Origin: Folioceros fuciformis
Lineage: Eukaryota
NCBI GenBank assembly: GCA_049999805.1
Contig: JBNGIO010005800.1
Location: forward strand, 50,031 to 70,030
Direction of reading: 5' to 3'
Length of the DNA: 20,000 bases
How positions within the stretch are numbered: the first letter of the stretch is position 1; each line of letters starts with the position of its first letter. Positions 1 through 20,000 of this stretch are shown in pieces. Below the pieces are notes generated by a model. It was not told the origin of the DNA and did no database searches. It worked only from the letters and a program-made list of their open reading frames with translations. The position numbers and the translations under genes are program-made.

Positions 1-2475
1 ATCAGGCCACACACGCGTATGCTGCCTCGCCTCCCTCCAGCAAGATGCGCGTCACGCGAGCACCGCGACACGGGCGCCGGACGCCGGCCGCTCCCAACCG
101 TAGCGGCTGAGACGCACAGCCAGTCGGTGCAAGAAGCTTCGCTCCGCTGGCCTCCGCTGGCGCGCTGCTGCCTGCTGCAAGAGAGCGGGATGGCCACAAC
201 AAGGGGCGGAGTGTGAATGAACGCCCGCAGGAAGGAGCGAGGGGTTAGGGCGGGAGGGAGGGGCTGCCCGGGCGCTTGGCTACAAGATGGCTTCCACTGT
301 GCGCGACGGAACCAGGGAAAGCAAGCACGCATGCCCACCCCAGGCGGGAAAGAGGGCAAAGCACAAGGAAGGCGAGTACTGACCTGAGTCGGCCGGCGCG
401 ATGGGAACAGAATGTGACTCGCCACCCTCCGCAGCCGTGGCGTGCGCCCACGTCCAGGTGCTACACAACCTAAAGAAACAAGGACACTGGCCTTAATTTT
501 GCGTCACGTTTCGTCCCTTTCTAAATTGAGCCCCGGCCACCCAGTTGGGCCTCCATCCCAGGCAATATGTTCCGCCTCTACCGTCCCCGATCGACGCTTC
601 TAGTGACTTCTTACCACAGTCCCCAAAAGTGGTCCACCCGCTACGTAAAAAATCGCCAGGATAAAGCCTACCCTTCTGAACCCTACTTTTATCTTTACTA
701 TATACAACTGAGGACTCGGTAACCACAAACCCTACACCCCTGCCTTTTCTCGGATACAACCACGGCAGACCTCGCCAAATAACCCTTACGTTGGGGGCTT
801 AACCTAATTTGTTTATTTTAGATATTTTTGAATTTGAAAATCATATGTAGACTACATATTTTAGTGCTATATTCATCTTACCATTAGATCAGCAAATAGA
901 CGTTTAGACGATTATTTTTGTTTTCTCTAACTCTAGGTATGGGTATACTAGGTGCAACGGACCAAATAATGGAGTTGGAAGAGAGAGGGTTATAAATAAC
1001 CCACCCCTACATAGAGAGAAAAGCTAACGAAGGGACTAGTAGGACAATTTCAAGGGGTGTAGAAAGAGAGGGCAGAGAGAACAAGCTCACACTACAAAGG
1101 CCGGCATAATGGGGAGTAACAAGCTAGGAGCAAACAGAATCAAGCACTCATGAAGCAAAAGGAAAGATTATATCACAGTAAGGTGAAATTTGGACATAGT
1201 TGTGAGACTAAGCACGATGAGCAATCATGCAAGGGACAGTGGTGCAAGTGCAAAGGGGATGCATGCTAGCGAAGTAGCGAGCCGTGACTCAGGGTAAATA
1301 AACCATGGAGGTTGACTTGCTAACTATTTCCGTGGTTGCCATATTTCGCAAGAGTGGGTTTTAAGCATCGCTCACAGTATTGCAAGCAAAGTTTGAACGG
1401 CCTGGACCTCTAAGAACAACCGGGTTTGGTAGGGTAGCACTCAGACAAGGGGTCGACGATAGGCAAGAGTGGAATGGCTCAAGAGGAGCAATTGTACATT
1501 CACTTGTTTTAGAGGGCAACTAAACTATCGACACCTTATTGAGTCTCGAACCAAGGGGTAATGACCTATGTAACTAGAATCAATTTATGGCTGTTATTGG
1601 TCCTATGCTCATCTTGATTTGGTGAAAAAGTGCTACATTAAGCTACAACAGAGGGAGGAGGATCTCGCTGCCCTCTCAAAAAGGAATCATAGCATTGGCC
1701 CTCAATGTTTGACCATTCATAACATTTGTCAAGTTTATGGAAGAGTAGTAGTATTAGTATTATGAATAAGACGACGAATGGAAAAAGGGTCCCTAATTCG
1801 ACACCCCTGTGGCATCTTGAGCTTAATGATAGGAAGAGGCCAAGCCAAGATTGAGGATGGCTGCCTTGGTGGTTTTTTACCAAGATTGTATTGGGGATGC
1901 TTAGTTATCAACGTGTATCTTACTTTGGCAATGCTTTTCTTGACTTCCTTTGGGCCATCACACAAGTAGAGCACGTTGTTTTGGGGATTGATCATGTATA
2001 AAGCACATATTTATCACTAAGAGAAGCTTCCCAAAGCTAATCTTGTGGAAAAAAGTCGTGTTTAACATTGCCTCCTCACTAGGTATTTGATGCACCTCTT
2101 TAGTATGAAAGGCTTGTTGACAAAGGAGGAGATGAACAAGTGGGGAAGGTTGTGAGTACCGGAACTCCCCTTGAAATAATCGAACGACAGGGACTTGGTA
2201 GTTTTTTTGTGCTTTGGTCAACAGAGTAACTGAATACAGTCTTGGCGGCCTCTTTTATACCCAAGAGCCTCCTTGGCCCATAGCAATTTCACTCTTCGGT
2301 GTGGTTTTGGCTACTAATAACAGATCCTTGGTCGCCCAAAGTTCCTTGGACATTGGCAATAGTATCCTTAAGTTGTTTTTTTTTTTTTGCAATAGTGAGT
2401 CTTTGGCTCATGGCCCACGAGGCAGGCCGGGACAGGGGTTCCTTAGCTCTTAGTGGTTTGGAATACCCAAGACCC

Positions 2476-2482
2476 TATATAA
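2476..2482 (+). promoter_or_regulatory. Candidate TATA box in LTR A, upstream of the LTR-internal ORF
   Basis: CCC-TATATAA-GG; positionally equivalent to TATAAAA at 10205 in LTR D. Confidence 0.55.
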
Positions 2483-2917
2483 GGAGGCAAGGTATTCCAC
2501 CACGGTCGCTCGTTCAGGTGGGGTGGTGGTTCGCGCCCCTACGATGGCTAAGTTAGGAGGGTGCTGAAGGCGGACTTGAGACAAACAGGGAGTGAAGGAA
2601 AACTTCTAGTCACGGAGCACAACTGGGAGAAAGCATTGACAAGCCATCACAGCCACGAGCAATCTCTGCGGTAATCAGAAGTCAAGGAAGGGAAGGGGGA
2701 CACAGACCACGAGGACGGACGGTGACAGCAAGGCGGCGCAGTCATCCGGGTTGGGGTAAGCCCTGGAGAAGCACCGGATTGGAGAAATAAGCGGGAAGTG
2801 CAACAGCGACCTGGAGAGAGCGCGCAGCACCTGAGAAGGAGGCAGGTGTTTGAGGGAACCGGGACTAGAGTGGAGTGGAGGATGGCGACTTAACCAGAGC
2901 CAGCGATTTCCACTGTG

Positions 2918-5111
2918 CAGTGGCCCAATATAGACCATTGGAAAATAAGAGATAGTGGTCTTGTGCAAGAGCTGGGTCTGAGGTTCATGTAGAAGAAGTG
3001 GTGCTATGATAGTCTCACTTTCGTGCTAGAGTATGCTAGCTACTTGAAGAACAATGTACAGGGAGGGTCGTTGAGGTAGAGGCCACAGGATTGGAGTTCG
3101 GAGCTCTTCTGGGCAATTTACTAAATGGGGGAGGCTGAAGAGGGGGGCTTGGTGATGGATCTCCATAGGAAAAAGACCTTAAGGGAAGCAGCAGTAGCAC
3201 TCACGAAGCCCGAGGAGGTGAGGGTTAACAATGGTTGGGTGGTCAGGCAGTTGGTCTCAGAGCAACTGGTTGGGCTAGCTAAGTGGATCTTGTGCTTTCT
3301 CCAGAGCAAAAAGCTGGATCATATGGCGGATCACTTCTTGGGTTTTCTCCATGAGGTAGTTCGAGGTGCACAGGTGGACTGGGGTAGGATTATTTCCGAG
3401 CGAGCTTGTGAGGAAAGAATAAATTTGTTGGTTGCCTGCCCGCGCCCCTCCCTCATATCACCTTTTCTGATCCACATTTTTATGTACTCCAAGTGTTTAA
3501 CCAAGCTAGAAATCGTGTTCTCCCTTCATAGCTAGAAAGTAGTCAGGGAAGTTAAGGTGGAAGAGGAAGATCCAAAGGAAGCCTTAGGGGAAGACTCCAG
3601 CAGCTAGGAGCTAGGAGCCTGAATCTCCTAAAGACTCTGAGGGGGAAGCCACGAAAGTCTGAAAGAGGAAGAGCCGGGCAACAAAGCGAGGTGTGGCTAA
3701 GAACGGGAAGACCCTAACAAGCGAATAGGAGGCAATGACCCCGACTCGTATCACCAGATCTAGGGCTATCACATAATCGCGAGAGGAACCGGAAAAGTGG
3801 AAAAGATAGACCACCCCTACCATGGCACTGAAAAACGATGGGCTGGGAATTAATGAGACTATAGTTAGAGTAGGAGGGTAAGTGCCGGCGACGGAGGGTT
3901 CCGAGGAGTGGGAGGCCATCTTCGGGGACACTCCCCTGAACCGACTAACAAGGGTGGGAGCAAAGGGTCTAGCCCGAGCAAAAGAGTGGCTCTAGAGAAG
4001 GATGATGATAGGAGCAACCCAAATTGGCGATTTGCAAGGACTGACCTTAGACATGGCCCAGACCCAGACGGATCTGCTCAACTAGGCCCCCGTGCGGCTC
4101 ACATGGCTCAACATGCACGGGCAGCATGAGAAGGTGCTGAAGGAAAAGCTGGAAGAGGTCGAAGGAAGAAATAACATAGCGGAGGACCGAAGGAGGGCGA
4201 GTGACGAGTTGCTGGGCAAAGCACAAGAAAAATTGAGGGAACTAACGAATCAACACGAAGCCCTGGTGAATCAGGTGAAAACAACCATGCCACAATTGAA
4301 AAACTTCAAAACAAAATCTTCCAAACTCAAGAGCTAGTGGCGAAACTGGAGAAATTCAAAAGGTTAGCTGAGAGGTACAAGCGGGAACGGGATGAGGCAA
4401 GAGCCAAGGTTAAGAGTGAGGTAGGGAGATCAAAGAAGGGGAAAGGTTCCGCTACCGCAGTGGCCGAAGCCGCAACCATGGTGAAATCGACCATGATTGT
4501 GGAACCCGCAACTAAAGTGGCTGAACCAGCAACCGTGGCAGAAGGAGGGACAAGGGGTAGTGGAACCAACTACCAACAAACCTATGGCAGAGGAGCATGC
4601 AACACCCTTGGAATGTAGGAGGAAGCCACCCTAGGACTATCAGCGAGAGGATTGGGTAAGGACCTCTTCGGTAGAGGGCCACATTGTGCTATCACGTAGG
4701 GATGAAGAGACCTATGTCCCTAGCTTCCAATTGCATTATGAGCAGGTGCTCACTCTAAATGTGTATATGGTGGTTGGAACAGGAGGGGGCAGGAACTACT
4801 GGCTGCATCTTTAAACAGCCACGGGCTGTTACCAATCGTTCTTGCGAATAGGTGCTGGAGTGTGCCCCTGACACGTAAGATTGCAGGAGATGATAGAAGA
4901 GGAACTGCAGGTTTGGGTGGAAGACCACACGGTAAGGTTGTCCAATGATGAAGAAACAAGGGGGAGCCCATTGAGAGAGAAATGGGCTATGGACAGTGGA
5001 AGCGAAGTGGAGGTATTATGGAAAGATCTCCCGGATCAGCAACGGGATAGAAGGGCCAGGGGGATTCCAACAGAGCGGAGGCCAAGGCAGCCAGAGCGGA
5101 GACGAGCATGA
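2918..5111 (+). pseudogene. Degenerate LTR-internal accessory ORF of A (Athila ORF1/plant transposon protein-like domain + coiled coil)
   Basis: Read through stops and frameshifts: QWPNIDHWKIR..GLRFM*KKW..RPQDWSSEL..EEGGLV..NGWVVR..LVGLAKW..HEVVRGAQVDWGRII..PSLISPFLIH..EWEAIF..DLQGLT..LTWL..LAERYKRERDEAR..EEELQVWVE..SEVEVL. Every block aligns in order with the ORF at 10355-12786. Confidence 0.8.
4460..4543 (+). repeat. Degenerate 18-21-bp coding minisatellite (VAEPAT-like units)
   Basis: Translation VAEAAT-MVKSTM-IVEPATK-VAEPAT-VAE. Confidence 0.6.
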
Positions 5112-5889
5112 TAGTCTATGAAGCACTAGGTCAGATTTTTGTTATAGGATAATCAACTCATGAATTCTGAACCAAGTAGTGTTAACCGTAGAAGAGTCTC
5201 TTTTGATACACAATTTTAGATGTGAGCTTTCTTGTGCTGAATTTGTGCACTGTGGGTTGGAGACATCCGATCGATGGTGACCTGATTCGGCATGTTGTCC
5301 TCTCGTGACAAGAGGACTTGGAAGATCCCTGGGTGGTCGAGAGCTATGTGACCTAGCTCCGCGATTGGGGTGGCTAGTGGAAAGGGGTGCTCTAGACCTA
5401 TGAGGAAGAGAAATTGCTGCAGAAGGTTAGGGTGGGAACGTGAGTTTCACGAAACCACTAGAAAGCCGAGAGGGAGCATGAGTTTTGCGAAACTCTTGTG
5501 AGCCGTACGGCTATGACTTTTTCCTTCCTCACTTCGCTGCCTAACCAGGCCGTGTTCAATCTTTGTGAGGGGTCTATGTGGCCCAAGCAGGACAATTGAG
5601 TGGAGATTTGGTGTGTGAGAAGTGTGTGTGGTTGAAATTGAGAAGTGTTGAGGAAGAGTGCTAATAGATTGAGTGGAGGAATCAGTGAGAATCAGTGATA
5701 TAGTGTAGCGCCGAGGTGTGGTTGGCTTTAATCTGCATCTACCAGTGTGATATGGTTGTAGAATAATGTGAGCAGGGCTTGGTGTGCATGAGAATTAGTC
5801 CGCACACGCAATAGCCCCTTCACAGACATCGCCAGAAACCCCACATCATCCAAGCGCCGCGACACCGGTGCGCCAAAAGGGTGGGTCCC

Positions 5890-5981
5890 ACCACGATGAT
5901 CAAATCCACTACTATGGTGGCGAAACTCACTATGGTGGTGAAGCCAGGACGACGATTGTGAACTTAGCCACGATGGTGGAG
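5890..5981 (+). repeat. Degenerate ~18-bp tandem units near the 3' end of LTR A
   Basis: ACTATGGTGGCGAAACTC (5911-5928) and ACTATGGTGGTGAAGCCA (5929-5946), plus related CCACGATG units. Confidence 0.6.
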
Positions 5982-6137
5982 TACGTCCGAGTAGGAACTC
6001 ACAGTAGAGAGTCTAGAAGTCATAGATTTAGAACAACTTGACACGAACCATTCCCTTGGGATCGAATCCTAGCACTATAACGATATAGAGGGTGAATGTG
6101 GGCCTCATTGTGTCCCTAGATACAAAATATCACATTT

Positions 6138-6155
6138 TGGTGCCGTTGCTGGGGA
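6138..6155 (+). promoter_or_regulatory. Primer-binding site of A (tRNA-Asp type, Athila-like)
   Basis: TGGTGCCGTTGCTGGGGA, 3 nt after the LTR-terminal CA; differs from the Athila-type TGGCGCCGTTGCCGGGGA by two C>T changes. Confidence 0.85.
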
Positions 6156-6234
6156 ATGACCTGCTGTCAAGGTTTTAGATGGGACTAACCTTACCTTGTA
6201 TGTTCATGCTTGAGTGTGTCAGATTGGTAGATGG

Positions 6235-6555
6235 ATGCCACAAGTTGAGTTAGAGGATTCTGAGTCAAGTCGTGAAGAGCAGCCCCAAGTGACGCGACAA
6301 CGCTAGGCAAAGGAAAGGTTGTGAAGGGCTGCAAATTGAGAGCTCAGGAGGGCTCAGTTGGAAGACGCACTTTCTGGAAGGGAAAGGGGGGTAAGGAATA
6401 GATCGAGATTTGGGGGTCCAATCTTGTTGGAGCAAGATCCTCAATCTCTTGTTTTGGACGAGGTACCATGGCCAAGGAACCTTGGTCCAACCTTGTCTTC
6501 TAACCCTTCTCTTAGAGGTGTGCGAGCTGCTGCAACCCAGCCAACTTTTGCAAAC
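6235..6555 (+). pseudogene. gag: gag of A, N-terminal segment
   Basis: ATG 6235 is in frame with ORF 6358 through three stops (TAG, TGA, TGA). It joins 7134 in frame (..TFAN|VAVTTKQPYP) if 6556-7133 is removed. Confidence 0.55.
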
Positions 6556-7128
6556 GACGTTGCTGAGACAGACACGGTAGTGTCGTGCTGTGCCGCTAAA
6601 CATCGAACTCATGCATAATTCATAAGTTAACAATACTCACACCACACAACATTACACACAAATTAAACACTGCATGATGGTGCTGCAGCTCTATGTAAGA
6701 GTGAAGCGTTTACTTCCTTCAGTCACCACAAAATCTCCTCCACTTGCATCCATACTTCTCAAAGCTGTAACTTGGGCTTCTTAAATCCTCAATTGGGTCA
6801 CATAATCTTCCACACTGCGCAGACGCACACCTCAATCGGATTTCCAATAGGAGAATGCTCCCTCAAGAGAAAGTCTATTCTCAGAAAGCAAGAGAATACA
6901 AGCTTACAGTTGCAGCGGACACCATTGAGCTAGGCTTTTATGCCTGCTACTTGAGACTTGCTGTAGCCACATCCACACCTCTAGTTGTGTGTCTATCTAG
7001 TTGACTTTATATTATATTATAGTTTTCTAATCATGCTCACTAAATAGTTATTAATTATCACTAATAGCATTCATTATTATCACTTAATTATTAAATAATT
7101 ATTATTTGCATGCATCTAAGCGACAACA
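6556..7128 (-). mobile_element. Element E: probable solo LTR (~570 bp) inserted in gag of A
   Basis: The minus strand starts TGTTG, then an AT-rich U3-like tract and CATAAAAG. Flanks CAAAC (6551-6555) and CACAC (7129-7133) form a 4/5 TSD, and excision restores the gag frame. The left terminus lacks a clean TG. Confidence 0.5.
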
Positions 7129-7133
7129 CACAC

Positions 7134-7806
7134 GTGGCTGTCACCACCAAGCAACCTTATCCATTATATGGAGAGAAGAAGGGGTATGAGAATCCTGATG
7201 AGTTTGTTGAGCGTTTTGAGCAGCTAACAATTGCAAATCAGGAGGTGGGGGATGCTAAGTGCATTCATTTATTCCATGGAGTTCTTCGAGGAGGGCCAGC
7301 TAAGTGGTATAGACACGAGTACTTCAAGATGGTAACACCCCCGATCACCTTTGAAGCCTTGAAGGACGCTTTTTGTGAAAGATTTAGGGAGATCGATGTG
7401 GAGGGCTGTGTTTTGTCCAAGTTGGAGCAGATGCGTAGGAAAAGGAAGGAAACCTTGCAAGCATATGTTGAGAGGTTTCACAACTTGCGTGATCGCAGTG
7501 GTCCTCATTCAAAACTATAGGCCATACGGTGGTTCGCTAGGGAACTAGGTACAAAAATGGGGAGACATGTGAGGCTGCAAGTGGAGAAGAGTTTGGATCG
7601 AGCAATTAGTGTAGCACTGAATTATGAAGAATCCAACTTGCAAGAGATAAAGAGAACGAGGAGGGAGGAGAAGAAAACCAAGAGGGATGGGAGGAAGCCC
7701 GCAAAAGGGAAAATGAAGAGGAATTTCTCCTCCTCCTCGGAAGGGAGCTCCACAAAAGGGAAGAACTCTTCAAAAGGTACTTTAGAGGATTCCATGGAGG
7801 AAGAAA
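7134..7806 (+). pseudogene. gag: gag of A, capsid (Retrotrans_gag-like) segment
   Basis: NPDEFVERFE..LFHGVLRGGPAKWY..TFEALKDAFCERF..LEQMRRKRKETLQAYVERF; in-frame TAG at 7518-7520; cut by element B at 7807. Confidence 0.85.
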
Positions 7807-8066
7807 TGTTACGGAATGGATAATCTACCCGTAACCCTACTGACCAGCTAGTTACCGTAGACCGTAATTAATAGTGTTTAATAATTACGAACGGGTGTGC
7901 CTCTTCAGAAGAGACACCTAGTGACATTATTTAAGACACACTTTGTAAACACCTTCCGTAGATTAACACAAAATATCTTTCTAAGCATTGCGTCTTGATC
8001 ATGCTAGACTAGATGCAATCCTAATCATGCTAGATTGGATGCAATCCTACTACTAGGATTTTCACA
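7807..8066 (+). repeat. 5' LTR of B (260 bp)
   Basis: TGTTACGG...TTTTCACA. Manual alignment to 17106-17337 gives about 16 substitutions, a 2-bp indel and a 26-bp tandem duplication (7998-8023/8024-8049). Confidence 0.95.
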
Positions 8067-8078
8067 TGGTATCAGAGC
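8067..8078 (+). promoter_or_regulatory. Primer-binding site of B (initiator tRNA-Met)
   Basis: TGGTATCAGAGC immediately after the LTR. Confidence 0.95.
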
Positions 8079-9051
8079 TTCGGCTTACATGGTCTTCTGA
8101 TCATGGCTAGAAACATGTTGTTGAGGTTGCGCAAGCGATATCCAAAGTTTTGAGAACCTTACCCGCTTGCTGATAAACCCTCTCGACGAGCTTTTCCGAC
8201 ACTGCAAAAGAAATCATGCATTAGATCATGATAGTCCTTTTTTCGTTCAAACTACAAAAAGAATCTTGCAGATGCTAGTCGAGACCTATCGATCTAGAAT
8301 AGGGAAAATGTAAGCCAAAAGAAGGTTGTCTCTCCTAGAATGTCTAGGAAACATAGTGCCTAGGCTTAGAAAATCCTCTCAAAATTTTCTCTATAAAAAT
8401 AAGGCAACATGGTAGTTCCCCCATTCGGGTAATGATCCAGGGCAAGGGCGCTTAATCCCGAATTTTGGGTGGAAGCCTAGCTAACCCCTCCCATTTTCTC
8501 AGCTTGCCTAAGGTTTGCAAGCCTGAAAATATGAGCAAAAAGAAAGTCTAAATGAACGTAAAAAACAACAACGGGAGAGGCGCGGCGCCTTGTTAGCTGG
8601 GTCTCCATTCTAGTTCTTCAACTATGAGATGTGACAAAATAACTTCTGTCACCTGTGCTCATCAAGAAATATCCGGAACATAGACCCCCACCTTGTGGCT
8701 TTCCACAAAAATTGATGGGTAATAGTTCAAGTACTTCAACCACTGGTCGTGAAGACTTGAGTTTTGAACATGGCTTGGTGTCTCATGATAGACAGCTGAC
8801 AAGCATCATTAGCATCCAGGAGCAATATTGCAGGAAAGGTTGTTAGGACCCACATGCAAGGACTCCTCTATGGTCAAAAAGAGTGTAACAGAGGGCACTC
8901 TGTTACTATAGCTGACAAACCATGACACAAACTGTCCTCATAAAATGCTGGAATGAGGTAAAGTGTCATATCAAGTATATAACCTAATTCCTTGAGAAGG
9001 TGTGTGACTTCAGATGTTACTGTCAAGCTCACCGTACCCATGCCCTACAAA

Positions 9052-9240
9052 TAAGAGACCTTGCATCTCCTAAGTGAATTTCATGCCCTTGACTATCAGG
9101 TACATGTCACAAAAAGGCTAAGAGACCTTGCGCCTCTTAGGCTGTAATACATGTTCTCAATTGACCTATATGTCACAATTGAGCTAAGAGACCTTGCGTC
9201 CCCTAAGCAATAATACACATCCTTAATTGACTTGTATGTG
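9052..9240. repeat. Three diverged ~66-bp tandem units
   Basis: TAAGAGACCTTGC at 9052, 9119 and 9185 (periods 67, 66); the rest of each unit is also alignable (TAATAC..AATTGAC..ATGTCACAA). Confidence 0.8.
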
Positions 9241-9518
9241 AGAAATGTCTTCCAATCCAAACATATACGAGCACTAGCTGCTGTATGAAAAACACCACAC
9301 TGCATGTGGTTTAACTTATGCTTTGGTGGACAGACACGTAGGTAGCAGAGGAAGATGAGACGCGCTAAAGCCTGGTTAGTACACAGTGAGCCCAACTCTT
9401 CTTGACTACCACGTGAGAGAGATCAACAAAGGTGCTCTTATTGCGAGAATCAGATTATTGCTTCTTTCTTCAATCACGTTCCAAGAGTGCGGGTATAAAA
9501 AACACCTAACTCGGAGTA

Positions 9519-9580
9519 TGTTTATACACTGTTGTATAAATTTCTCCTTACTGTTTATACTCTGTTGTATAAACTTCTCA
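9519..9580. repeat. 33-bp tandem duplication
   Basis: TGTTTATACACTGTTGTATAAATTTCTC at 9519 and TGTTTATACTCTGTTGTATAAACTTCTC at 9552. Confidence 0.85.
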
Positions 9581-10204
9581 TGTAGGAAAGACCTCCATGA
9601 GAGCATCCTTCCGGAAAGTAATATGGTAATTTGGCTTTGCGCCTTCACCATTAGAGAAGTGCCAAACCCTGATGTTTGACAGAACGTCTGTGTAGGTACC
9701 TACTTATGTCGACTTTCGGCAGGACTTCCACTAGATCGCCAATTCCTGCAATTAGTAGATCTGCTAGCATTGTGTCTTGGGCTTGAGCAAATGTGTTAGA
9801 TGTAAAATATGTAACCAACTTGCTGGTGGAGAATGACATTTCTACTGAGAACCAGGTGCATTGGTGTGAACGAAAAAAACTTTCGGAACCCCCATTTTGA
9901 GCGACGGAATGAGCAGGTTGTGATTCTTTTGTGAAGGGACAGGCGAATCGGCTAAGTAAGCGAGTAAGACCGGGGTGTTTACCCCCAAAGTCCACCTTGG
10001 GCTTCGGGGTTTGGGGAGTACGGGAGATCGGGACAAGGAGGGGGAAGCAGCGAGTGCCTCCTTGGCCCTCGGGTCATTGAGAACATTAAGGTAGGCAAAA
10101 GTAAGGGCCCGAGGTGACGGGGCAACGGTAGCCGGCAGGGCAACTGTTACCGGAGGAACGACTCGAGCTAGCCCGACGGGCGTAAGGGGAGAAAGCAGGC
10201 AGGG

Positions 10205-10217
10205 TATAAAAACCCTA
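10205..10217 (+). promoter_or_regulatory. Candidate TATA box overlapping a telo-box-like AAACCCTA in LTR D
   Basis: TATAAAAACCCTA, 150 bp upstream of ATG 10355. Confidence 0.55.
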
Positions 10218-11786
10218 GAGAAAGGGGGGCTCTATCCAGCATCCGAAAGTACGGGGAGCAGGAGTAACTTGAAGCGTGAAGCGGCTGAAAGAGGGGAAAG
10301 CGCCAGGACGACAGGAGAGACGGCGCAGGGTGTGAGAGGAGGAGGACAGGCAGAATGAGGGCGCGGCCTGAACTGATCCTTGGAGCAGCAGCCTCTAGAC
10401 AGGAGGGGGGGCCTCCTGTCCCCCGAAGTGACCTACTCCTGTGGCCCAATATGGAGCACTGGAGGGTCAGGGCAGGGAAGTTGGTGGCAGAGCGGGGTTT
10501 GAGCTTTATGACCCAGAAGTGGAACCATGCAGCACCCCAGCTGGTCAGGGAGTGCGCCCTATGGCTGATAGAGCCTGTACGCAAGGAGAGGATTAGAGGC
10601 AGACCCCAGGAATGGAGCCTAGAGTTGATTAGGAAGGTCTACGGGCGCGACCAACAGGAGGAGGGGGGACTGGTGCTGGAGTCCCTAAAGAAGCGTGGCG
10701 GGACGGGAGCCGCGGAAACGTTGCTCAAGGCAAGCACGAAAAAGGAAGCGAACGGGTGGCTAGTGCGCGACATGGCAAGTCCTTAGTTGTTGGGATTGGC
10801 CAGGTGGTTCCTGAGCTTCTTCCGAGTGCGTAAACAGGATTATATGTCCGACCAGATGCTCTTGTTTGTGCATGAAGTAGTGAAAGGTACCAGGATCGAC
10901 TGGGGGCGGATTTTATATGTCCGAATGGATGAGGAGAGGCAGAACCTGATCCGACCCAATCCTGAACCTTCTATGATTTCCCCGTTCCTAATCCATGTGT
11001 ACAGTTACTCTAACCTAGTCACTGAGCTAGAAATGCTGGCCTCGCTGCACCTGTGGAAGCCAGTTCGCGATGTGAAGTGGAAGCCCGCTGAGCTAGCAAG
11101 GGCTGCCTCCAGCAGTTGGGAAGCTGACAGTGGAAATAGCTTGCAGGAGGAAACCCCAATCAAGCCCAGGAAGAGGATGGTGCTACAGAAGAAGACTCCT
11201 GTCAAGAGGAAAAGGGCCAGAGGACAAAGTGTGAGCATGGGGGCTGATCAGGAGGAAGAGGGGGCAACCCTGGAGCAGAAGGGCCAGTAGGAGGGAGGAC
11301 GAGAACCAGCAGTCCAAGGAATTGAGGACCGAAGGTTGGAGGAGCAAGGTCAGGGTGAGACAAGACCTAAGGGGCCACAGGATCAGGTGATGGCAGCGGA
11401 CACAGTTTCCTCCAGACAGGAGGATAAGTTAGGGCGTGTTTCAGCACAAGAGGGTTTCTCAGGGTGGGAGGACATTTTCAGGTGCAGGCCTCAGGGAGAC
11501 AGGTTGCAGGTGGGGGACCTGGACAAGTTGCGAGAATTCCTGGGCATACAAATCACGGCAAGAGGAATGGGCACCGAACGGGTGTAGGAGGTGGACCTAC
11601 CTGGGCTGACTGCTGCGGTGGTGCAAGCCCAAGCAGACCTCCTGGATCAGGCTGCTAGGGCCCTGACCTGGTTAAGTGTACAATCGGAGCGAGAAACCAA
11701 GACTCAAGGAAAGGAGGAGGAGTCTCGTGAGCGAGAGGTTGAAGTAAGGAGGCAACTAGCGGAGTCGTAGACAGCGCGGCAACTGC

Positions 11787-11886
11787 NNNNNNNNNNNNNN
11801 NNNNNNNNNNNNNNNNNNNNNNNNNNNNNNNNNNNNNNNNNNNNNNNNNNNNNNNNNNNNNNNNNNNNNNNNNNNNNNNNNNNNNN
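11787..11886. other. Assembly gap (100 N)
   Basis: N run flanked on both sides by GCGGCAACTGC. Confidence 0.99.
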
Positions 11887-12199
11887 GCGGCAACTGCTGG
11901 AGGAGAAGCAACGGGTCCTGGACAGGGAGAAGGCTCAAGCCAAGGAAGAGGCGCGCGAGGCGAGGGCTGAAGTGCAGGCGCTGAAGGAACAACAGGGGGC
12001 CCTGCTAGCTCAGGTGAGGGAGGCTCACGAGGCTAACCTGGAGTTGCAACAGGAAATGGCTAAGGCAGAGGAGATGGAGATAGCCGCTGTGGAGCAGGCC
12101 CAGAAGTTAGCTGACAGATACAAGCGAGAGCGGGATGAGGCCAGAGAGAGAGTGAAGGGGAAGAGCAAGGCTGGGCGCCCGAGTCAGTCGACGACCCCG

Positions 12200-12313
12200 G
12201 TAGCGGAAGGGGCTATCGGTAGCCAAACCAGGGGAACGGTAGTCGAGGAGGCTACCGGTAGCCGGGTAGTCCACGGGACTACCGGTAGTCGAGTAGCCGA
12301 CGGGGCTACCGGT
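12200..12313 (+). repeat. ~27-bp coding minisatellite (VxxGATGSR-like units)
   Basis: VAEGAIGSQ..VVEEATGSR-VVHGTTGSR-VADGATGG; recurring CTACCGGTAG. Confidence 0.75.
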
Positions 12314-13740
12314 GGCCCAGTGAGGCCCAGGATAGCTGAGGAACCAACCCTGGAGAAGAAGGAGGCAGCAGTAGGGGCGCCTGCCCCTAGGCGCTCTAGG
12401 AGGGTGGCCCGTACCAGGAGAACAGAGCCGGAGGAGGCAACAGCTGGGCAGGCAGAGAACCTTCAGGTACCCCAGCAGGAGGGGGAGCAGGCAACCCGAG
12501 GTAGCCCAAGGGAGGACGGGGAGGGACGCGGGGCTACGTCCTACAAGTGAGGACGCGCCTGGGATTCTACCACTACAGATGGTGGGTGACAGGGCTGCCC
12601 CACTGCTATCCGGAGGCAGTTTTGGAGGAACTGACGGAAGAGGAGGCCCAGCGCTGGGTAGAACGGGAGCTTGTGGCTGTCCACAGCAACCAGAGAAGGA
12701 GGAGGGGTGGTGGACCACAGTGGCGGGACCCACCTGCGCTGCCAGCAAGGCCCAGCAGTAGCAGCAGTGATGTGGAGATCCTCTGAGAGGATCTGCCGGA
12801 CCAACGGAGAGGCAGAAGAGTGAGAGGAGGAGCAGTGAACGGTGACGTGCGAAGGCCAGGAGGAAGCCGTCATCGGCGTGGGACAGGGCGATAGTAAATG
12901 CAGGCTAGATTAGTTTTTTTTAGTGTGCTTTATTTGGACCCAAGTCGCTCAGAATTTAAGAGCGCACCTCCCCTACCTGACAGACTTTATGGCGGGAAAA
13001 CCGCCATCACCGTGTACAAGAGGCCGGTTTGAAGGCCTAAGAAAGGAGCAAGAACCAGCCGAAAAGTCGACCGTGCAGGGACCTAGCGATGGCCGTTGCT
13101 GGACGGGAGGTCCAGGCAAGCGAGCGCACGTAGCAACTTGGGGTGCGGGTGTAGGTGGTGTGCGCTCCGTGATCAGGTCCGGGGACGAATCGGGAGGAGG
13201 TGCGTCGCCGAGTGGGAGAGAAGCTCCCCAACTATCCTCGAAGTGGTCACGTGGTTGGTGTGGGTGATGGAGCCGAATCCGCGAGTGCGGAGTGGAAGGG
13301 ATTCCTCTTCCCTTAGCTCCGGTACCTCACCATTCCTCAACATTCATAGGAGCCCAGGAGGGGCATTGCTGAGAAAGAAGACGAAAGAACCGGAGAAAGA
13401 GGAAGCGCGAGGGTGCGCGTGTGTGGGAAAGGGGAGAAGCGAGTGACCGAGTAATGAGTAAGGGCGAATTTGAAGGGATGCCAGAAGGAGTGGAAGCCGG
13501 AAGTGAAGCGAAGTGTGACTGATCGCGGTGAGCCTGGAGAGGTCGTGAAGAAGTTGAATTGAGACCGCAGAGGGTGTATCTAAGGTGTGAGATCCCTCGG
13601 GTGGAAGGCGACCGGCAGATTGTTGCTGTTCATGTGTGCGTGCGTTTGATCCTGAGGAGTGAGGGGCGGCTTTGTGGAGAACCAAGGAAGGGAAGCGCAA
13701 AGGGAATGCGCGGAAAAAACGGTCGGGAAGGGACGACTCG

Positions 13741-13785
13741 GAGAGAGAGAAAACTCTAGAGAGAGAGAGAGAGGGAGAGAGAGAG
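13741..13785. repeat. Interrupted (GA)n microsatellite in LTR D
   Basis: GAGAGAGAGA-AAACTCTA-GAGAGAGAGAGAGAG-GGAGAGAGAGAG. Confidence 0.9.
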
Positions 13786-14965
13786 GACCCACGAGTGGTA
13801 GCCCGAAAGACAACGGTAGTAGCCCCCTGGGGAATGGAGAGTAGCCCAGTGGGCAACCAAGAGTAGTCCAGGGGGAGGTAGTCCCTGGAGTGACAGAGTG
13901 GTAGGGGAGTCGCCTGGAGGAAGAAGTAAGGGGGCTTGGTAAGGTCTGAGCATTGGACGTGTGTGGGTGGGTCAGTCGAGTTTTATGTGTTGGCTGACTT
14001 TAGAAGCTAACCTGTGTAGTTTAACACAAATCATTCCCTTGGGATCGAATCCCAAAGCTACAACGACATAGAGGGCTTGTGTAGACCTCGCGGTACCCCT
14101 GGGTACCATATTTTAACCCCACAATTGGCCATATGCATTGGTGTCTTCATACAAATTCTCACAACACCCAGTTGGTAAAAGTTAGTAAAGAGGTTTAGAA
14201 GACCTATGTCAGGATCGTCACCCTGTATGGTTGCCCCTAAAACACTCTTGTATCTAACACTTGATGCTCCAAACGCATTATCATCGTGCTAGGCATAATC
14301 ACTCTACTTCTTGTTACAGATATTTCTCATTGATGCCATGTTGTTTTTAGAGTGCAGAGTCTCCAATCTTGTCCACAATGGACTTAGCCCGACCTCTCTA
14401 CTATAACATGATAGATAGTCTACTTTTACTAAGAAAGTACACAGCTTCTTCGTGATTGATTGACTATGTATTTTCTTCTGAACTGGAAAAATAACAGAAG
14501 ACAGGGCTTCTGCTGTAGTGTTGATGATGCAAAGATTCTTAGTCTTAATAAGACTCCTTTCATCCAGATCAACCTGTGTTTTGCTCTTGAGTTCATTGCC
14601 AGCATTGAGAAAGATCTTGCGCATTATGAAGGGATCTCTTTTTATCAGCTGCAAATGAACGGAACTAACTGAAGATATAAGACTGGAGTAATCTTCCTAA
14701 AAGTCAGCTTCTTGCTTGTCTTGATCAGTAAAGTCATGTTGTTCCTCCTCTGCAACCATGCTACAGGCTTAACAATTATTATGTCAGAATTGACTAGAAG
14801 ATCAGCACCCACCAAAAGGGAGCATCCACATAGCAAGGTCCAGCAAGCTTGTCCCTGAGACGTATCTGCTTGCTTTCCAATTTATTATGTATGTAGCAGG
14901 AGAAACACAAATTTGGCATGTCAAAATTGTGATTTCTGGGAGTTCAGCGCACTTGTATCTGCACT

Positions 14966-15065
14966 NNNNNNNNNNNNNNNNNNNNNNNNNNNNNNNNNNN
15001 NNNNNNNNNNNNNNNNNNNNNNNNNNNNNNNNNNNNNNNNNNNNNNNNNNNNNNNNNNNNNNNNN
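14966..15065. other. Assembly gap (100 N)
   Basis: N run. Confidence 0.99.
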
Positions 15066-15510
15066 CCATATGCGCAATTTCCTCTTGACTTTTTGTACTC
15101 ACTCTAAGCACATTTCTATTCAGATCATTGAATTGATGTAAAGAATCCTTGTATGTTTCTCTAATCTTTTTAGTTAGCATGGTCAAAGAGCCATACTTGA
15201 CTAACTGTATTTTGATGAAACCTCTAGGGTTTTCATTGCCATCAAATGTGTGTCTGACCTGAATTTCTGGCAAGCCTTCTGAGTTTTTAGGAGTGAATGC
15301 AACAATCTGATGTTTCTCATTAAGGTACGCAAATACTATAATTGCATTTTTAATTTCCTTAAGATTGTCTATTTGCATTCTTTTTTCCCGAAAACCATAT
15401 AACATTACAGATGCTCTAGGCCGAAAATGTCTTGCCTTGGGCAGCAGCTCAATTCTTCTCCTAGACATAATGTCAGCAAAACCCAGGCTGCTATTTTGGC
15501 CAATCATCAT
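15066..15510 (-). pseudogene. gag: Degenerate Copia gag (UBN2/Retrotran_gag_2-like) of C
   Basis: First long ORF after the minus-strand PBS; HTFDGNENPR..QLVKYGSLTM..ETYKDSLHQFNDL resembles the Copia gag FEGNE..KLQ..FE.L.M..ET..RFNDL pattern. Confidence 0.5.
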
Positions 15511-15558
15511 GGCCTACATAATTGACTATCTTACATGGCCTGAATAAGTAGATATAAA

Positions 15559-15650
15559 AATGCACTAAATTTGCGGCTTCTATTATTTTTCTAAGAATTG
15601 TGATGTAGGAATGCACTTAATTTGCATCTTCTAGTATTTTTCTATAAAAA
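15559..15650. repeat. Two diverged ~40-bp units at 51-bp spacing in the leader of C
   Basis: AATGCACTAAATTTGCGGCTTCTATTATTTTTCTA (15559) vs AATGCACTTAATTTGCATCTTCTAGTATTTTTCTA (15610). Confidence 0.7.
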
Positions 15651-15808
15651 CTAGAATTCTACAACTCTAAAGTTCAGTTCTTGATTATGTTTTGGTTTCT
15701 TGAAAATAAACTTCTTTTCTGTTCAAGAAAATACAAAACTTGTGTCTCGTGCATCTTTTTCAATGCACAGCAGGATGTGCATCTCATGAATGCGATCTAC
15801 ATTAGCAT

Positions 15809-15820
15809 GCTCTGATACCA
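15809..15820 (-). promoter_or_regulatory. Primer-binding site of C (initiator tRNA-Met)
   Basis: GCTCTGATACCA is the reverse complement of TGGTATCAGAGC. Confidence 0.85.
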
Positions 15821-16081
15821 TAACAAAATATAAGGCTAATGTAAATCAATTATACCATTTGTATAGATTACATCTTAGATAATCAAGAAAAGGAGAGTAA
15901 CTTGTTTAGGTGAAAAGACAACTTAAGCTAACTTTACAAACGGGTGTGGCTATTCACTAATAGTCCTAACCCTAGCAAAACATTATGTCCATTCGCTACA
16001 TGTATATATGTATACATTTCATTTAATCATGGATAAGGCTAAACCCTAAACCCTTTACTCTAGATGTGTATATGGTCAACA
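15821..16081 (-). repeat. Probable 5' LTR of C (~260 bp)
   Basis: AT-rich block between the PBS and B gag; the minus strand begins TGTTGACC and ends ...TTGTTA (CA>TA presumed); contains AAACCCTAAACCCT at 16041-16054. Confidence 0.6.
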
Positions 16082-16095
16082 CCCTATTTCATTAG

Positions 16096-17020
16096 ATTTT
16101 TGCTCACACCTTGAAGTTTAGAGAGCTGCGAGGGCAGCTCGCCTCCCTTGGCTTAACCATGTCGGAGACTAATGCCGCTGCACAGCTGCTAATGAGCTTA
16201 CCACCATCTTACCAAAATTTCATGACGAGCCTGATGTTGGTATTAACTCATGGTAAGTTAGGTACCCCCTCCACCCTTACAGTGGAGGACATTATTGGCG
16301 CTCTGTATCAGCAGGAGTAGAGACGCCTTAGCTCAGCAGCAGGGTCCAAGCCCGAGATAGATAGGGCGCTTTCCACCCGCTTCAAGCCCGGGAGGAATTC
16401 GAAGGGCGAGGCAAACTTCACCCCTAAAGGTGACTCAACCTTTGCCCCTCCTCGCTAAGCTGGAAATTGCAATTGGTGCGGAGCTGCTGGCCATTGGGCA
16501 CGGGAGAGCCACAAGAAAGAGGCCGGAGAGCCGCAGAAGGCTGACCTGTGACAGGTAGCCAATATTGCAGTTAAGGGGAAAGCCAGCACAGTGGAGACAA
16601 AAACCGTAAAGATACTTACGATTTCCCTCAACACCCAGTTGCATCAAGATGCGGGGCAGTATCTCGACAGTGGAGCCACCGCCCACATATGCAACGATCG
16701 TACTCTATTCACCAAGCTGGATAATCATCCTCTCAAGGAAAGGGTGTTACTCGGTGATAACCAGAGTAGATCCAGCTTGCCAATCATGGAACAAGGCACT
16801 TGCAAATTTCCCCTCAAGGATGGTTCGCTGCTTACCTTGGAGCATGTGCTTCTAGTCCCACCAATGGACAAGAACCTGGTCTCCATGCCTCAGCTGCTGA
16901 AGCAAGGCGATCTTAAGATGCTTGCTTCAAGGGGGTCATGCAACTTTTTCAGGACCCCAAATCCTGACTTGTGCCTCTTCAGCACCATGCCTCAAGACAG
17001 CATGTACATGCTCTCATTAG
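16096..17020 (+). pseudogene. Copia gag C-terminal half, zinc knuckle and protease of B
   Basis: KFRELRGQLASLG..LLMSLPPSYQNF (UBN2-like); CNWCGAAGHWARES knuckle (~16468-16510); YLDSGATAHIC (~16660); LEHVLLVPPMDKNLVS; in-frame stops. Confidence 0.9.
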
Positions 17021-17096
17021 CCTTCAGAGGGTGTGCATCAAAGAGGAGCACTCCATGGGAGATAGCCTCCACCACTGGTCAGGTTACGTTTAGCTT

Positions 17097-17105
17097 AAGA
17101 GGGAG
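17097..17105 (+). promoter_or_regulatory. Polypurine tract of B
   Basis: AAGAGGGAG directly before the 3' LTR TG. Confidence 0.8.
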
Positions 17106-17337
17106 TGTTACGGAATGGATAATATGCCCGTAACCCTGCCGACCAGCTAGTTACTGTAGACCGTAATTAATAGTGTTGAATAATTACGAACGGGTGTGCC
17201 TCTTCGGAAGAGACACCCAGAGACACAATTTAAGACACTTTGTAAACACCTTCCATAGATTAACACGAAATATCTTTCTGAGCATTGCGTCTTGATCATG
17301 CTAGACTAGATGCAATCCTATTGCTAGGATTTTCACA
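17106..17337 (+). repeat. 3' LTR of B (232 bp)
   Basis: Direct repeat of 7807-8066; TG..CA; followed by TSD AGAAA. Confidence 0.95.
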
Positions 17338-17342
17338 AGAAA

Positions 17343-18909
17343 GGAGTAACCGCTCGGAGGAAGGATCATCCGAAGAAGAGCGCGCCAAAGGAAAAATAAA
17401 TAAGTCCAGAGTTGAAGTCGAGAGACAAAAGAGTCGTGCATGAGAAAGTAAAGAGCATGCAAGGGCAAAACAAGAAGTTGAGCATGCCAAGAAAGATGCG
17501 GAGTTGGCAAGAAAGGAGGCTGAGACAGCAGCCAAGGAGGTGGAGCAGCAAGGGAGCAAGATGGAAGAGATGACAAAATTTGAGAAATTCCACCTTAATG
17601 CAAGGAAGGAGCATGAGAGATGCAGGGCTACTATGAATGCACGGGCTAACCTCTTCTGTTCTACATGTGGCCATCAAGGGTACTCTAAGTCTAATTGCCC
17701 AACCACAAAAGTGCACCTGCTGGGCTATGAAGAAGAAGAGGAGGAAGGGTTGGAGGAGGAAGGTATGGAAGAATTGTACCAAATTCAAGAGGTACAACCC
17801 AGTCAAGGGTATCCGAAGACCAGGTACCCCCCTAATTTATGGAATTCCACAAGGATAATGGCCCGAAATTAGCCAAATAGAAACCATAACCAAATGGGCG
17901 TTGTGTTGTGCTACAATTACCTCAACTTGGGGCATTATGCGCATAGCTGCCCATGACCAACGAGATAGGGTAACGGGGAGTTCGATAGGCTGTGCCAAGA
18001 TTGCAGGCAGCAGGGACATCTAGCAGGAAGTGTGTTCTGCCAAAATCCTAGGAAGATGGTGAGGATCGCAGAACCAACAATAACGAGGATCCAGCGAGCC
18101 TAGGTCCGAACTCAATGCCAGCAATGCATGTAGAGGATGTGCTCATGGTGGTGTGGCAAGACGCCGAGGTTACAGTCCTTAGGAGCTTGGAAGGCCAGGA
18201 TAGCAGCTAATATGGAGAAGCTGCTGCTATGGCTGTCGACACCTCAAGCGCGAAGGACCGGGATAAAAGGAGGGGAGGAAAAAAGAAAAGGGATGAGGTA
18301 AGTTCTGCTGCAGGATCAGAGGAAGAAAAGCACACCTCAGCCACATCATATGAGGGAAGGCCAAAATTCCTGAAAACAGTGTCACTAGACAAGGAGGACT
18401 TAAGTGTGCCAAGTACTTCAGCAGAAGAAGGAGGGGCCAGCAAGGAGGCACGCACGAAGTGTAGAATGCTTTAGTTGAAGAGGGTGGAAATCTGAGACTT
18501 GGGGGGCCAAAAGAGGAATTGCCGAGGGAAATGGCTGTGGAAAAAACCAAACTACAACCCTCAGTGGAAGCCACGACCCAAAAAAAAGAAAAGTTAGGGC
18601 TTTCACTAGATATGCAGAGGGAGGTTATGGAAATGATTTAGGAAGAGAGGGGGAAAACGGTCATGGTGGCGGAATCTAGGGTGCCCAATTCCACTACTTC
18701 CCCACTAGATTCTGTTGTCCCACTTGAGAGAGCCACCGTTCCTTAGAGCGTATTAGCGCTAGATCCCAAGGACCAACCCTGGTGGAGAGAAGGAACGAGC
18801 TGGTGCACCTTTCAACCTAGTAGAGGCCATCATATACAAGCGCTTCACGATCACGTTTGGGTAGCTTCTCAGGGATAAACCGCGATATAGGCAACAGATA
18901 AGGCGAGCG
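17343..18909 (+). pseudogene. gag: gag of A, C-terminal part (coiled coil, three zinc knuckles, long charged linker)
   Basis: In-frame continuation after B; CSTCGHQGYSKSNC (17657-17698), CYNYLNLGHYAHSC (17909-17950), CQDCRQQGHLAG (from 17993); stops and frameshifts. Confidence 0.75.
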
Positions 18910-20000
18910 TTGAGGGTGGCCCAGCCTAAGAAGAAAAGGAGCTTGCCTAAACTGGGGCTCAAGTCACTCCCGGTGAACGTGTTGTCCATGGTGGATCAAG
19001 GACCTGCTGAATTACAGGCGGAAATTGCGCGGTGTGTAATTCATGGGGTGCCGCTTGACACTGGATCAGGTGTCAAAAGCATGACAGACGAAATGGCCTG
19101 GAGGTTGGGATTAGAGATTGAGCATACCTCCAAAGTTTTGCGGCTAGCTGACATGTTCAAGATGGCACTAGTAGGGGAGCTGACATGAGTACGAACGGTC
19201 ATTGGAACCATTCCCTATCTGATGGATTATGTGTTCATAAAGCAGAAAGCGCTGGAATACAAGGTTCTGATCGGACGAACCTGGATGTACAAGTTGCGAT
19301 GTACCCTCATGTGGGGAAGGAAGGAAATAGGGTTCCACACATGATCAAGTTGGTAAGCTGTTATGGAATAACTGTCGATGGTATAGTTGCTTCAAAGGAG
19401 GAAGGCGAAAGGGAATTCCTAGCCCAAGAGCGTAATTCGAAGGAAGAAGTTACCCGTTTCTCCTCGGAGGATTTGTTTCGAGAATGGGGCTTGAGGAAGG
19501 AGGAACTGCGAGAATCCAAGGAGGGTTTTGGGGTTAGCACAGCACCCGTGGAAAGAGAATGGGTGTAGGCGGAAGAGATTAAGGATGTGGAAGTACTTCC
19601 AGGCAAAGTACTTAAATTTGCTAAGAATATGGACGTAGTGTTACAAGAAGGAACGAAGCAGCCGCTAGTAGAGTTCATAGACATGTTTGCCTTTAATATA
19701 ACGGATATGAAGGGAATACCAAGAGAGTGGGGGTAACACAAGATTGATTTGGAACCATGATCCCTCCCAGTAAGGATTTCACAATACAAGCTAAACCCCA
19801 AGTACTTGCTGAAGGTGAAAGAATAGTTGGAACTGTATGTCAAGGCATCCATGTGATCTATCCCATTGTTAATTCAAAATGGGTAGCTCCAATCATAGTG
19901 GTGCTTAAAAAACAACTCGGGAAGATTCGTGTTTGTCATGATTGGAGGCAATTGAATAAGGCCACTAAAAAGGACCACTTTCCGTTAGCTTTCATTGACA
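18910..20000 (+). pseudogene. pol: pol of A: aspartic protease and N-terminus of reverse transcriptase
   Basis: VPLDTGSGV (Asp codon 19057); DMFAF..DMKGI..HKIDLEP..QYKLNPKY..WVAPIIVVLKK..IRVCHDWRQLNKATKKDHFPLAFID (19679-20000); multiple stops. Confidence 0.92.

Follow-up and report, generated by a model that had tools for sequence, protein, structure and literature searches.

The retroviral genes sag of mouse mammary tumour virus (MMTV) and nef of human immunodeficiency virus (HIV) lie in or overlap the U3 part of the long terminal repeat (LTR) and are expressed from RNAs initiated upstream, and ORF1 of the plant Ogre elements is located after the primer-binding site (PBS), in the internal region. 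One plant-element survey describes the extra genes of plant LTR retrotransposons as internal, before gag or after pol, sorts extra open reading frames (ORFs) by whether they lie 5' or 3' of the polyprotein, and reports LTRs of up to ~5 kb, with no coding role of the LTRs mentioned there (PMC6317226). It gives extra ORFs with PMD, Transposase_28 and Athila ORF-1 domains at 57% for Ogre, 23% for Retand and 16% for Athila, with PMD in 57% of the Ogre extra ORFs (PMC6317226), and one review confines PMD to angiosperms (PMC8616336). ATHILA elements, as described in a preprint, have LTRs of 1-2 kb and an Athila-specific ORF downstream of pol, beside the 3' LTR; their LTR ends in TATCA and is followed by a 3-6 nt AT-rich spacer and a tRNA-Asp/Asn PBS with the core TGGCGCCGTTGCC (preprint 10.64898/2026.03.20.713144). 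Here we analysed a 20,000-nt stretch of Folioceros fuciformis DNA (GCA_049999805.1, contig JBNGIO010005800.1, positions 50,031-70,030 of the forward strand; hereafter the window) which, read end to end, is a nested set of retrotransposons, and for which a preliminary description had proposed giant Gypsy LTRs with a conserved protein gene inside them. On balance, we judge that two units of the window, A and D (Table 1), are probably genuine LTRs (4.1 and 4.3 kb) of two diverged Athila-like (Ogre/Tat/Athila, OTA) Ty3/Gypsy families, and that each holds the remains of an accessory gene. Read from the sequence, the departure from known plant elements is an accessory gene placed before the PBS and hence inside the LTR.

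The 3' end of unit A, at 6134, reads ATATCACA and is followed by TTT and then by the PBS; the junction TATCA, CATTT, TGGTGCCGTTGCT combines a TATCA-type terminus, an AT-rich spacer and a PBS, the latter with two mismatches to the ATHILA core, both C to T, as scored against the published core. Downstream of the PBS, gag, protease and the start of reverse transcriptase (RT) follow on the + strand in the order typical of Ty3/Gypsy elements, and because they come next on the same strand, A occupies the position of a 5' LTR, ending at its PBS as the preliminary description had it. Upstream of A, positions 1-2043 gave no Pfam match to transposon proteins when all six frames were scanned, and the summed contig depth in those DNA runs that contain the stretch was ~8-13 there (such summed depths are not copy numbers, by the tool's own caution), rising from ~8 (bin 1335-2001) to ~32 (bin 2002-2668), i.e. 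at about 2044. Since the upstream DNA lacks any match to a transposable-element protein and has near single-copy depth, A is not the pol-to-3'-LTR part of a tandem element, and this arrangement, which had been named as the way in which the frame could turn out to be internal, was discarded: unique DNA, not pol, precedes A.

Unit D carries the marks of a solo LTR, namely TG...CA ends, a 5-bp target-site duplication (TSD), homology to LTR A, and neither inner LTRs nor gag-pol. The 3' ends of A and D gave a local alignment score of 43 against 11.9 +/- 1.5 for shuffles, and with the exact ATTGG copies on both sides and the TG/CA termini this bears out the earlier description of D as a TSD-flanked LTR. 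The summed depth of the D family was 850-3000 in the source DNA runs, compared with ~10 for unique DNA. Many diverged relatives of the D tail lose alignment at 13399 and 14009, with 23 contigs having loose ends before 14009, and the loose contig letters at 13399/14009 resemble D minus a short deletion. Since the alignments of these relatives break at the two points, it appears that no other part of the LTR is as widely common to related families as its last ~115 nt.

We compared the sense frames of the two units at the protein and DNA levels. With tblastn, 2894-3724 of A matched 10415-11209 of D with 42% identity over 278 amino acids (E 1.5e-56), and three additional collinear blocks followed (E 2.5e-7, 4e-9 and 3e-8), while the blastn matches were limited to a 41-nt stretch of the frame (4363-4403 vs 12106-12146) and to 55 nt at the 3' ends. 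The block-by-block protein alignment and the unalignable surrounding non-coding DNA reported previously were thus both recovered, and apart from the terminal DNA block the heads and tails of the units showed no conservation like that of the frame. Nucleotide identity between A and D at codon positions 1, 2 and 3 was 0.567, 0.634 and 0.362 over 508 aligned codons, a pattern somewhat favoured by an alignment that was picked by protein similarity and with third positions near saturation. Because of this pattern together with the E value of 1.5e-56, we read the comparison as showing long selection on the protein since the split of the A and D LTR families, in line with the purifying selection claimed before; a chance ORF or non-coding similarity was ruled out on the same two results.

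Neither copy is intact. In D a single frame runs from the ATG at 10355 to 12550, with TAG codons at 10784, 11288, 11585 and 11768 and a 100-N assembly gap at 11787-11886, and the last ~90 codons, to the end at 12786, are in another frame; the coding frame holds 8 stops in its 810 codons, compared with 43 and 35 in the other two. Decay is greater in A, which changes frame at least three times and has 9 stops within its first 277 codons. The longest start-to-stop ORFs in units A and D are 167 and 192 amino acids. Both copies are dead relics, that is, pseudogenes, so that the long ORF described in each LTR stands as a sense frame but not as an open one, and the proposed survival of the gene in solo LTRs holds in D for a relic, not for an intact gene, because the observed copies are pseudogenes. 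Beyond the frames lie non-coding tails of 1023 nt (A) and 1337 nt (D), matching the ~1 kb of non-coding end described; of the T-rich tracts said to come after the frames, that of D was seen (T8 at 12914), but no T run of 7 or more was found after the frame of A. At 12213-12317 of D, directly after the conserved RYKRERDEAR block, a 27-nt unit is repeated in tandem and in frame, with the palindrome CTACCGGTAG abundant in it, and A has a degenerate palindromic stretch at the matching position (4444-4528). We considered the CTACCGGTAG-like palindromes of D (12213-12315) as an array of binding sites and dropped the idea, because their count in the window (6, with 5.4 expected by chance) is at chance level and the cluster is the in-frame repeat itself.

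The protein encoded by the frame has an N-terminal helical domain followed by a basic stretch resembling a nuclear localization signal (a putative label, given to D by reading), a coiled-coil-like region and a conserved C-terminal block. Pfam reported nothing above threshold for it, and PF10536 (PMD) and PF03078 (ATHILA ORF-1) went unreported at E up to 1-10. An HMMER search of 1.84 billion representatives found 8 proteins with the same domain (E 1.2e-8 to 6.5e-4), half of them from Riccia sorocarpa and one from Marchantia polymorpha, both liverworts; the UniRef name of one Riccia protein has it containing an aminotransferase-like plant mobile domain, which our Pfam scan did not reproduce. Profile searches added 4 new proteins (3 among 5 rows and 1 among 8 rows), none with a precomputed Pfam domain. 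A word-index search with the D protein gave 0 matches among 8000 candidates, and in metagenome contigs the exact 21-nt LTR-end motif gave 0 matches and the homologue P0011 gave 80 pattern matches, 0 of them confirmed. In several relatives the domain is followed by acidic or basic low-complexity sequence and then by weak matches to coiled-coil families. Leads to the PF20167 and PF03078 clusters (language-model scores of 0.85-0.86, predicted-structure TM of 0.62) were all below the tool's bar. At the sequence level, then, the frame protein constitutes a new family whose nearest relatives are liverwort proteins. An envelope-like or second-gag protein was rejected, there being no match to a membrane or gag family and the element having its own gag.

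We then modelled the N-terminal domain, whose fold was predicted with confidence. The AF2 models of the D domain (pLDDT 82.4, pTM 0.81; 10-row alignment) and of the homologous Riccia domain (pLDDT 89.7, pTM 0.87; 21-row alignment) share their alignment and hence are not independent. With an exhaustive structural aligner, 9lnk_A (VANC21 with DNA) came first of 48,161 chains for both models, with Z 6.6 (192 aligned, root-mean-square deviation 4.3) and Z 6.3 (179 aligned, 3.8), values that lie below the tool's safe level for helical proteins; the runners-up reached Z 2.4 and 4.3 with partial coverage of the domain, leaving VANC21 as the sole whole-domain match. Foldseek against PDB and BFVD returned nothing at E <= 0.001. 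Besides the modest Z values, two sequence-level results count against this assignment: a profile search against the sequences of solved chains gave nothing below E 0.13, and the D domain showed a weak match to PF20167 Transposase_32 (16.8 bits with a cutoff of 45, E 0.0064, profile positions 2-168 of 177), seen in 1 of 21 family members, the D domain only.

The predicted-fold similarity suggests an N-terminal helical domain with a VANC21/PMD-like fold, and the frame is most likely a distant member of the class of accessory proteins carried by OTA Gypsy elements and VANDALs. According to two papers, VANC21 is the sequence-specific anti-silencing protein of VANDAL21, which binds the DNA of its own element and removes methylation (PMC8756742, PMC8616336), and a 2026 atlas reports VANC as structurally homologous to the PMD protein MAIN, and the VANC and Athila domains as modelled in oligomers formed via coiled coils (PMC13547354). 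Judging from its predicted architecture, the frame protein was probably an accessory factor of the Ogre/Athila/VANDAL kind that would have bound DNA or chromatin in the nucleus, and it may have acted on the silencing of its own family.

Within each unit a single TATAWAW motif stands upstream of the frame, as the preliminary description had noted, and a scan of the + strand found none in the tail of A or D. Because the frame lies downstream of this sole TATA and upstream of the PBS, it most likely sits in R/U5, a placement read, like that of the promoter, from motif positions; with the head TATA as LTR promoter, U3 would be of ordinary size and the frame would therefore fall in R/U5. In LTR elements, reverse transcription turns the stretch from the RNA start to the PBS into strong-stop DNA, and both LTRs come to contain it. 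An accessory gene between the LTR promoter and the PBS would by this mechanism be copied into each LTR, and hence be duplicated at each transposition, because the stretch from RNA start to PBS is copied into both; it would form the first cistron of the LTR-driven RNA, and solo LTRs would retain it together with its promoter. The implied R/U5, of ~3.6 kb, would be of unusual length. From a run guessed to be RNA (X4), 12 contigs fell on the window, none of them over either frame. As for the proposed LTR-encoded accessory gene, all evidence in the window puts the frame inside the LTR, and what stands there now are pseudogenes.

The frame might instead lie in U3, in the manner of sag or nef, had an Athila-type post-pol ORF become enclosed in the LTR when the plus-strand primer site moved upstream; the true promoter would then be in the ~1-kb tail, and the gene would be expressed from read-through or spliced element RNA rather than from the upstream TATA of the LTR itself. 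The usual place of the ORF specific to Athila, downstream of pol and beside the 3' LTR in the preprint cited above (10.64898/2026.03.20.713144), agrees with such an origin, as does a language-model look-up with the Riccia homologue P0004, in which the PF03078 ATHILA cluster came first at 0.86, a value below the tool's bar and a lead only. Furthermore, the conserved 3' block and the ~1-kb tail could hold a TATA-less promoter with an R/U5 of ordinary size, while a 3.6-kb R/U5 would require unusually long strong-stop DNA. However, the tails are devoid of TATAWAW, whereas both heads have one, 432 and 340 nt from the LTR start, and we consider placement in U3 unlikely.

Less likely still is that the LTR borders were set wrongly, the true LTRs being short, the frame an ordinary internal extra ORF (like Ogre ORF1 after a PBS, or Athila-like before a polypurine tract) and D a rearranged fragment with ATTGG on both sides by coincidence. 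An Ogre-type ORF would lie between PBS and gag, but the A frame ends at 5111 and the PBS, at 6138-6155, is downstream of it, 3 nt past a TATCA-type terminus and with unique DNA before A. The first 600 nt of each unit compared with its last 1500 nt scored 12 for A (shuffles 12.2) and 14 for D (shuffles 14.3); because these terminal comparisons score like shuffles, hidden short LTRs are absent, no short direct repeats were present at the ends of A or D, and the further alternative raised at the outset, short LTRs in a small element with the frame as its internal part, was ruled out by the same scores. An exact 5-bp match would arise about once in 1024 tries, and here it flanks borders that were fixed independently, by TG/CA and by homology to the end of A. 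In addition, a contig from another locus stops at 10720 and resumes exactly at 9865, the first position of D, as would be expected from nested insertion of another D copy.

Wrong borders would be consistent with the lack of a second LTR of either family within the window and with the uneven depth along A, and these belong to a larger group of points that weigh against A and D as gene-bearing LTRs. Both frames are broken. A and D alone were observed, with no element that has two such LTRs, the 3' end of the A element lying beyond the window, and D is a single unit with one copy in the window. At their 5' ends, A and D show no significant similarity (score 14; shuffles 11.6 +/- 1.3, maximum 16), having in common a TGTG start with an A run after it. 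The summed depth in A is ~32-43 over 2002-4002 and 107-215 from there to 6003, and it reaches 553 in the leader and gag of the A element, which could mean that the 5' part of the LTR is different or shorter in relatives. The tails of A and D contain no AATAAA, and since chance would give roughly one TATAWAW in every ~4 kb, only the shared position of the motif carries weight.

That the frame segment is a separate mobile element or a captured host gene which landed in the LTRs is very improbable: in liverwort assemblies the homologues carry ordinary gene annotations, but the segment has the same position, orientation and flanking layout in two LTR families diverged beyond DNA recognition, which argues for long co-inheritance of frame and LTR under protein constraint, and no inner TSD or terminal repeats were noticed.

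Table 1. Features of the window; positions are counted from its first nucleotide.
Feature	Position	Strand	Details
Unit A, read as 5' LTR, Athila-like Gypsy	2044-6134	+	4091 bp; TGTGG...TATCACA ends; adjoins PBS
TATAWAW (TATATAA), sole one in A	2476-2482	+	432 nt from LTR start, ~400 nt before ATG-like start 2882
A sense frame, ~743 codons	2882-5111	+	many stops, at least 3 frame changes
N-terminal globular domain, A frame	2894-3535	+	3 internal in-frame stops, a fourth at the end
Conserved 3'-terminal LTR block	A 6038-6128, D 14021-14111	+	74% over 91 nt
PBS of A element, TGGTGCCGTTGCTGGGGA	6138-6155	+	3 nt past LTR end; 11/13 positions of ATHILA PBS core
gag (capsid part) of A element	7095-7806	+	Retrotrans_gag E 1e-8, Ty3_capsid E 1.3e-8; interrupted by nested Copia
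Copia TSD AGAAA	7802-7806 and 17338-17342		exact copy each side
Nested Copia-type element	7807-17337	+	interrupts A element and hosts unit D; LTRs, PBS, TSD
Copia LTRs	7807-8066 (260 bp) and 17106-17337 (232 bp)	+	92.6% identical over 217 nt
Copia PBS, TGGTATCAGAGC	8067-8078	+	tRNA-Met-type
TSD ATTGG, left copy	9860-9864		directly before D
Unit D, read as solo LTR, related high-copy family	9865-14123	+	4259 bp; TGTGA...CCCCACA ends
TATAWAW (TATAAAA), sole one in D	10205-10211	+	340 nt from LTR start, 150 nt before ATG
D sense frame, ~810 codons	10355-12786	+	4 in-frame TAG, one frame change near 12505-12550, N gap
N-terminal globular domain, D frame	10430-11089	+	one in-frame TAG
TSD ATTGG, right copy	14124-14128		directly after D
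A-element continuation	17343-20000	+	three zinc-knuckle-like motifs, LDTGSG protease motif, RT start (read from translations)

The remainder of the window is taken up by the body of the A element and by the Copia-type element nested in it (Table 1). A leader of ~940 nt separates the PBS of the A element from its gag capsid domain; the protease was reported by Pfam (gag-asp_proteas) only at E 0.29, and the element stops, within the window, in the first RT residues, with integrase and RNase H beyond it. One contig from the DNA runs links 7797 to 17337 without the Copia insert. The gag and Pol_BBD domains of the Copia element (Pfam, 16096-17130) stand directly against its 3' LTR, and ~3.7 kb of domain-free DNA lies between its PBS and gag. 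Because no integrase or RT match was found in 7807-17337, this element looks like a deletion derivative, or else it is affected by the N gap at 14966-15065. Pfam was also run on 44 further reading frames from the window and on the flanks read through in six frames, and reported gag and Copia domains only. The flanks of D (9339-9864 and 14124-14674) have summed depths of 660 and 1870, compared with ~10-27 nearby, and D seems to be inserted in a further high-copy repeat within the Copia element. A 66-nt unit occurs two to three times in tandem at 9052-9247, the copies being ~71-76% alike.

At the left edge of the window, a 1872-nt contig from the run guessed to be RNA matches 1-365 on the minus strand with one difference, at a depth of 344, and continues past the left end, which suggests an expressed gene; for a 167-amino-acid frame at 3-503 (-), Pfam gave no match. 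Relative to the window, the differences in run X3 contigs are mostly C>T (1307 places, with 507 for G>A), and this C>T excess is not seen in the two remaining DNA runs from that sample; it is as would be expected of a bisulfite-type library, and if X3 is of that type the run could report the methylation of LTRs A and D.

If the accessory gene does lie inside the LTR, the consequences would extend to annotation, since the gene would be overlooked or cut up by LTR finders and ORF surveys; to copy-number dynamics, since each element would have the gene twice and solo LTRs would keep it; and to how reverse transcription proceeds across a very long R/U5. If the VANC21/MAIN fold lead is correct, an anti-silencing or chromatin factor would have a counterpart carried by a plant retrotransposon, one whose nearest relatives are liverwort proteins. 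We regard as doubtful the most far-reaching form of the argument, in which the LTR is a self-contained cassette with a promoter, an ~800-codon gene for a nuclear factor of VANC/PMD fold and a terminator, carried in R/U5 and in two copies per element. Were it true, the hundreds of D-family solo LTRs would each be a potential expression unit, the encoded trans-acting factor would protect the family from silencing, and replication would need strong-stop DNA of more than 3.5 kb.

A full-text literature search returned no case of a plant ORF inside an LTR, a weak negative given that most subscription journals are outside its coverage. Among described systems, MMTV sag and HIV nef resemble the A and D frames in being coding sequence within the LTR, and hence at both provirus ends; in A and D, however, the sole TATA is upstream of the frame and points to R/U5, and both the host, a plant, and the protein family, an unrelated one, are different. 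VANC21 (PDB 9LNK), from the Mutator-like VANDAL21, resembles the frame protein by the whole-domain match to the two predicted models, by being an accessory protein encoded by a transposable element and by having a coiled-coil part, but it comes from a DNA transposon of dicots, and its sequence similarity to the A/D protein is undetectable. The Ogre elements (Tat clade) are likewise non-chromovirus OTA Gypsy elements, whose LTRs reach ~5 kb and whose accessory ORF, in sense orientation, precedes gag, and their ORF1 (eORF-5'F) carries PMD where the A/D domain has a VANC/PMD-like predicted fold; in contrast to Ogre, the A frame precedes the PBS, inside the LTR, Pfam PMD is unmatched, and the PBS of the A element is of the Asp/Asn tRNA type, as in Athila. 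With Athila the 5' junction at A has in common the TATCA terminus, the short AT-rich spacer and the PBS core at 11 of 13 positions; further shared features are 5-bp TSDs and an accessory protein with a globular domain and a (here predicted) coiled coil, as described for Athila in the atlas (PMC13547354), whereas LTRs A and D, at 4.1-4.3 kb, hold the gene, and those of Athila, in the preprint, are 1-2 kb long with the ORF behind pol. Thus, by its sequence features, the A element is Athila-like in its PBS and LTR terminus and Ogre-like in its giant LTRs and in a sense accessory gene before gag.

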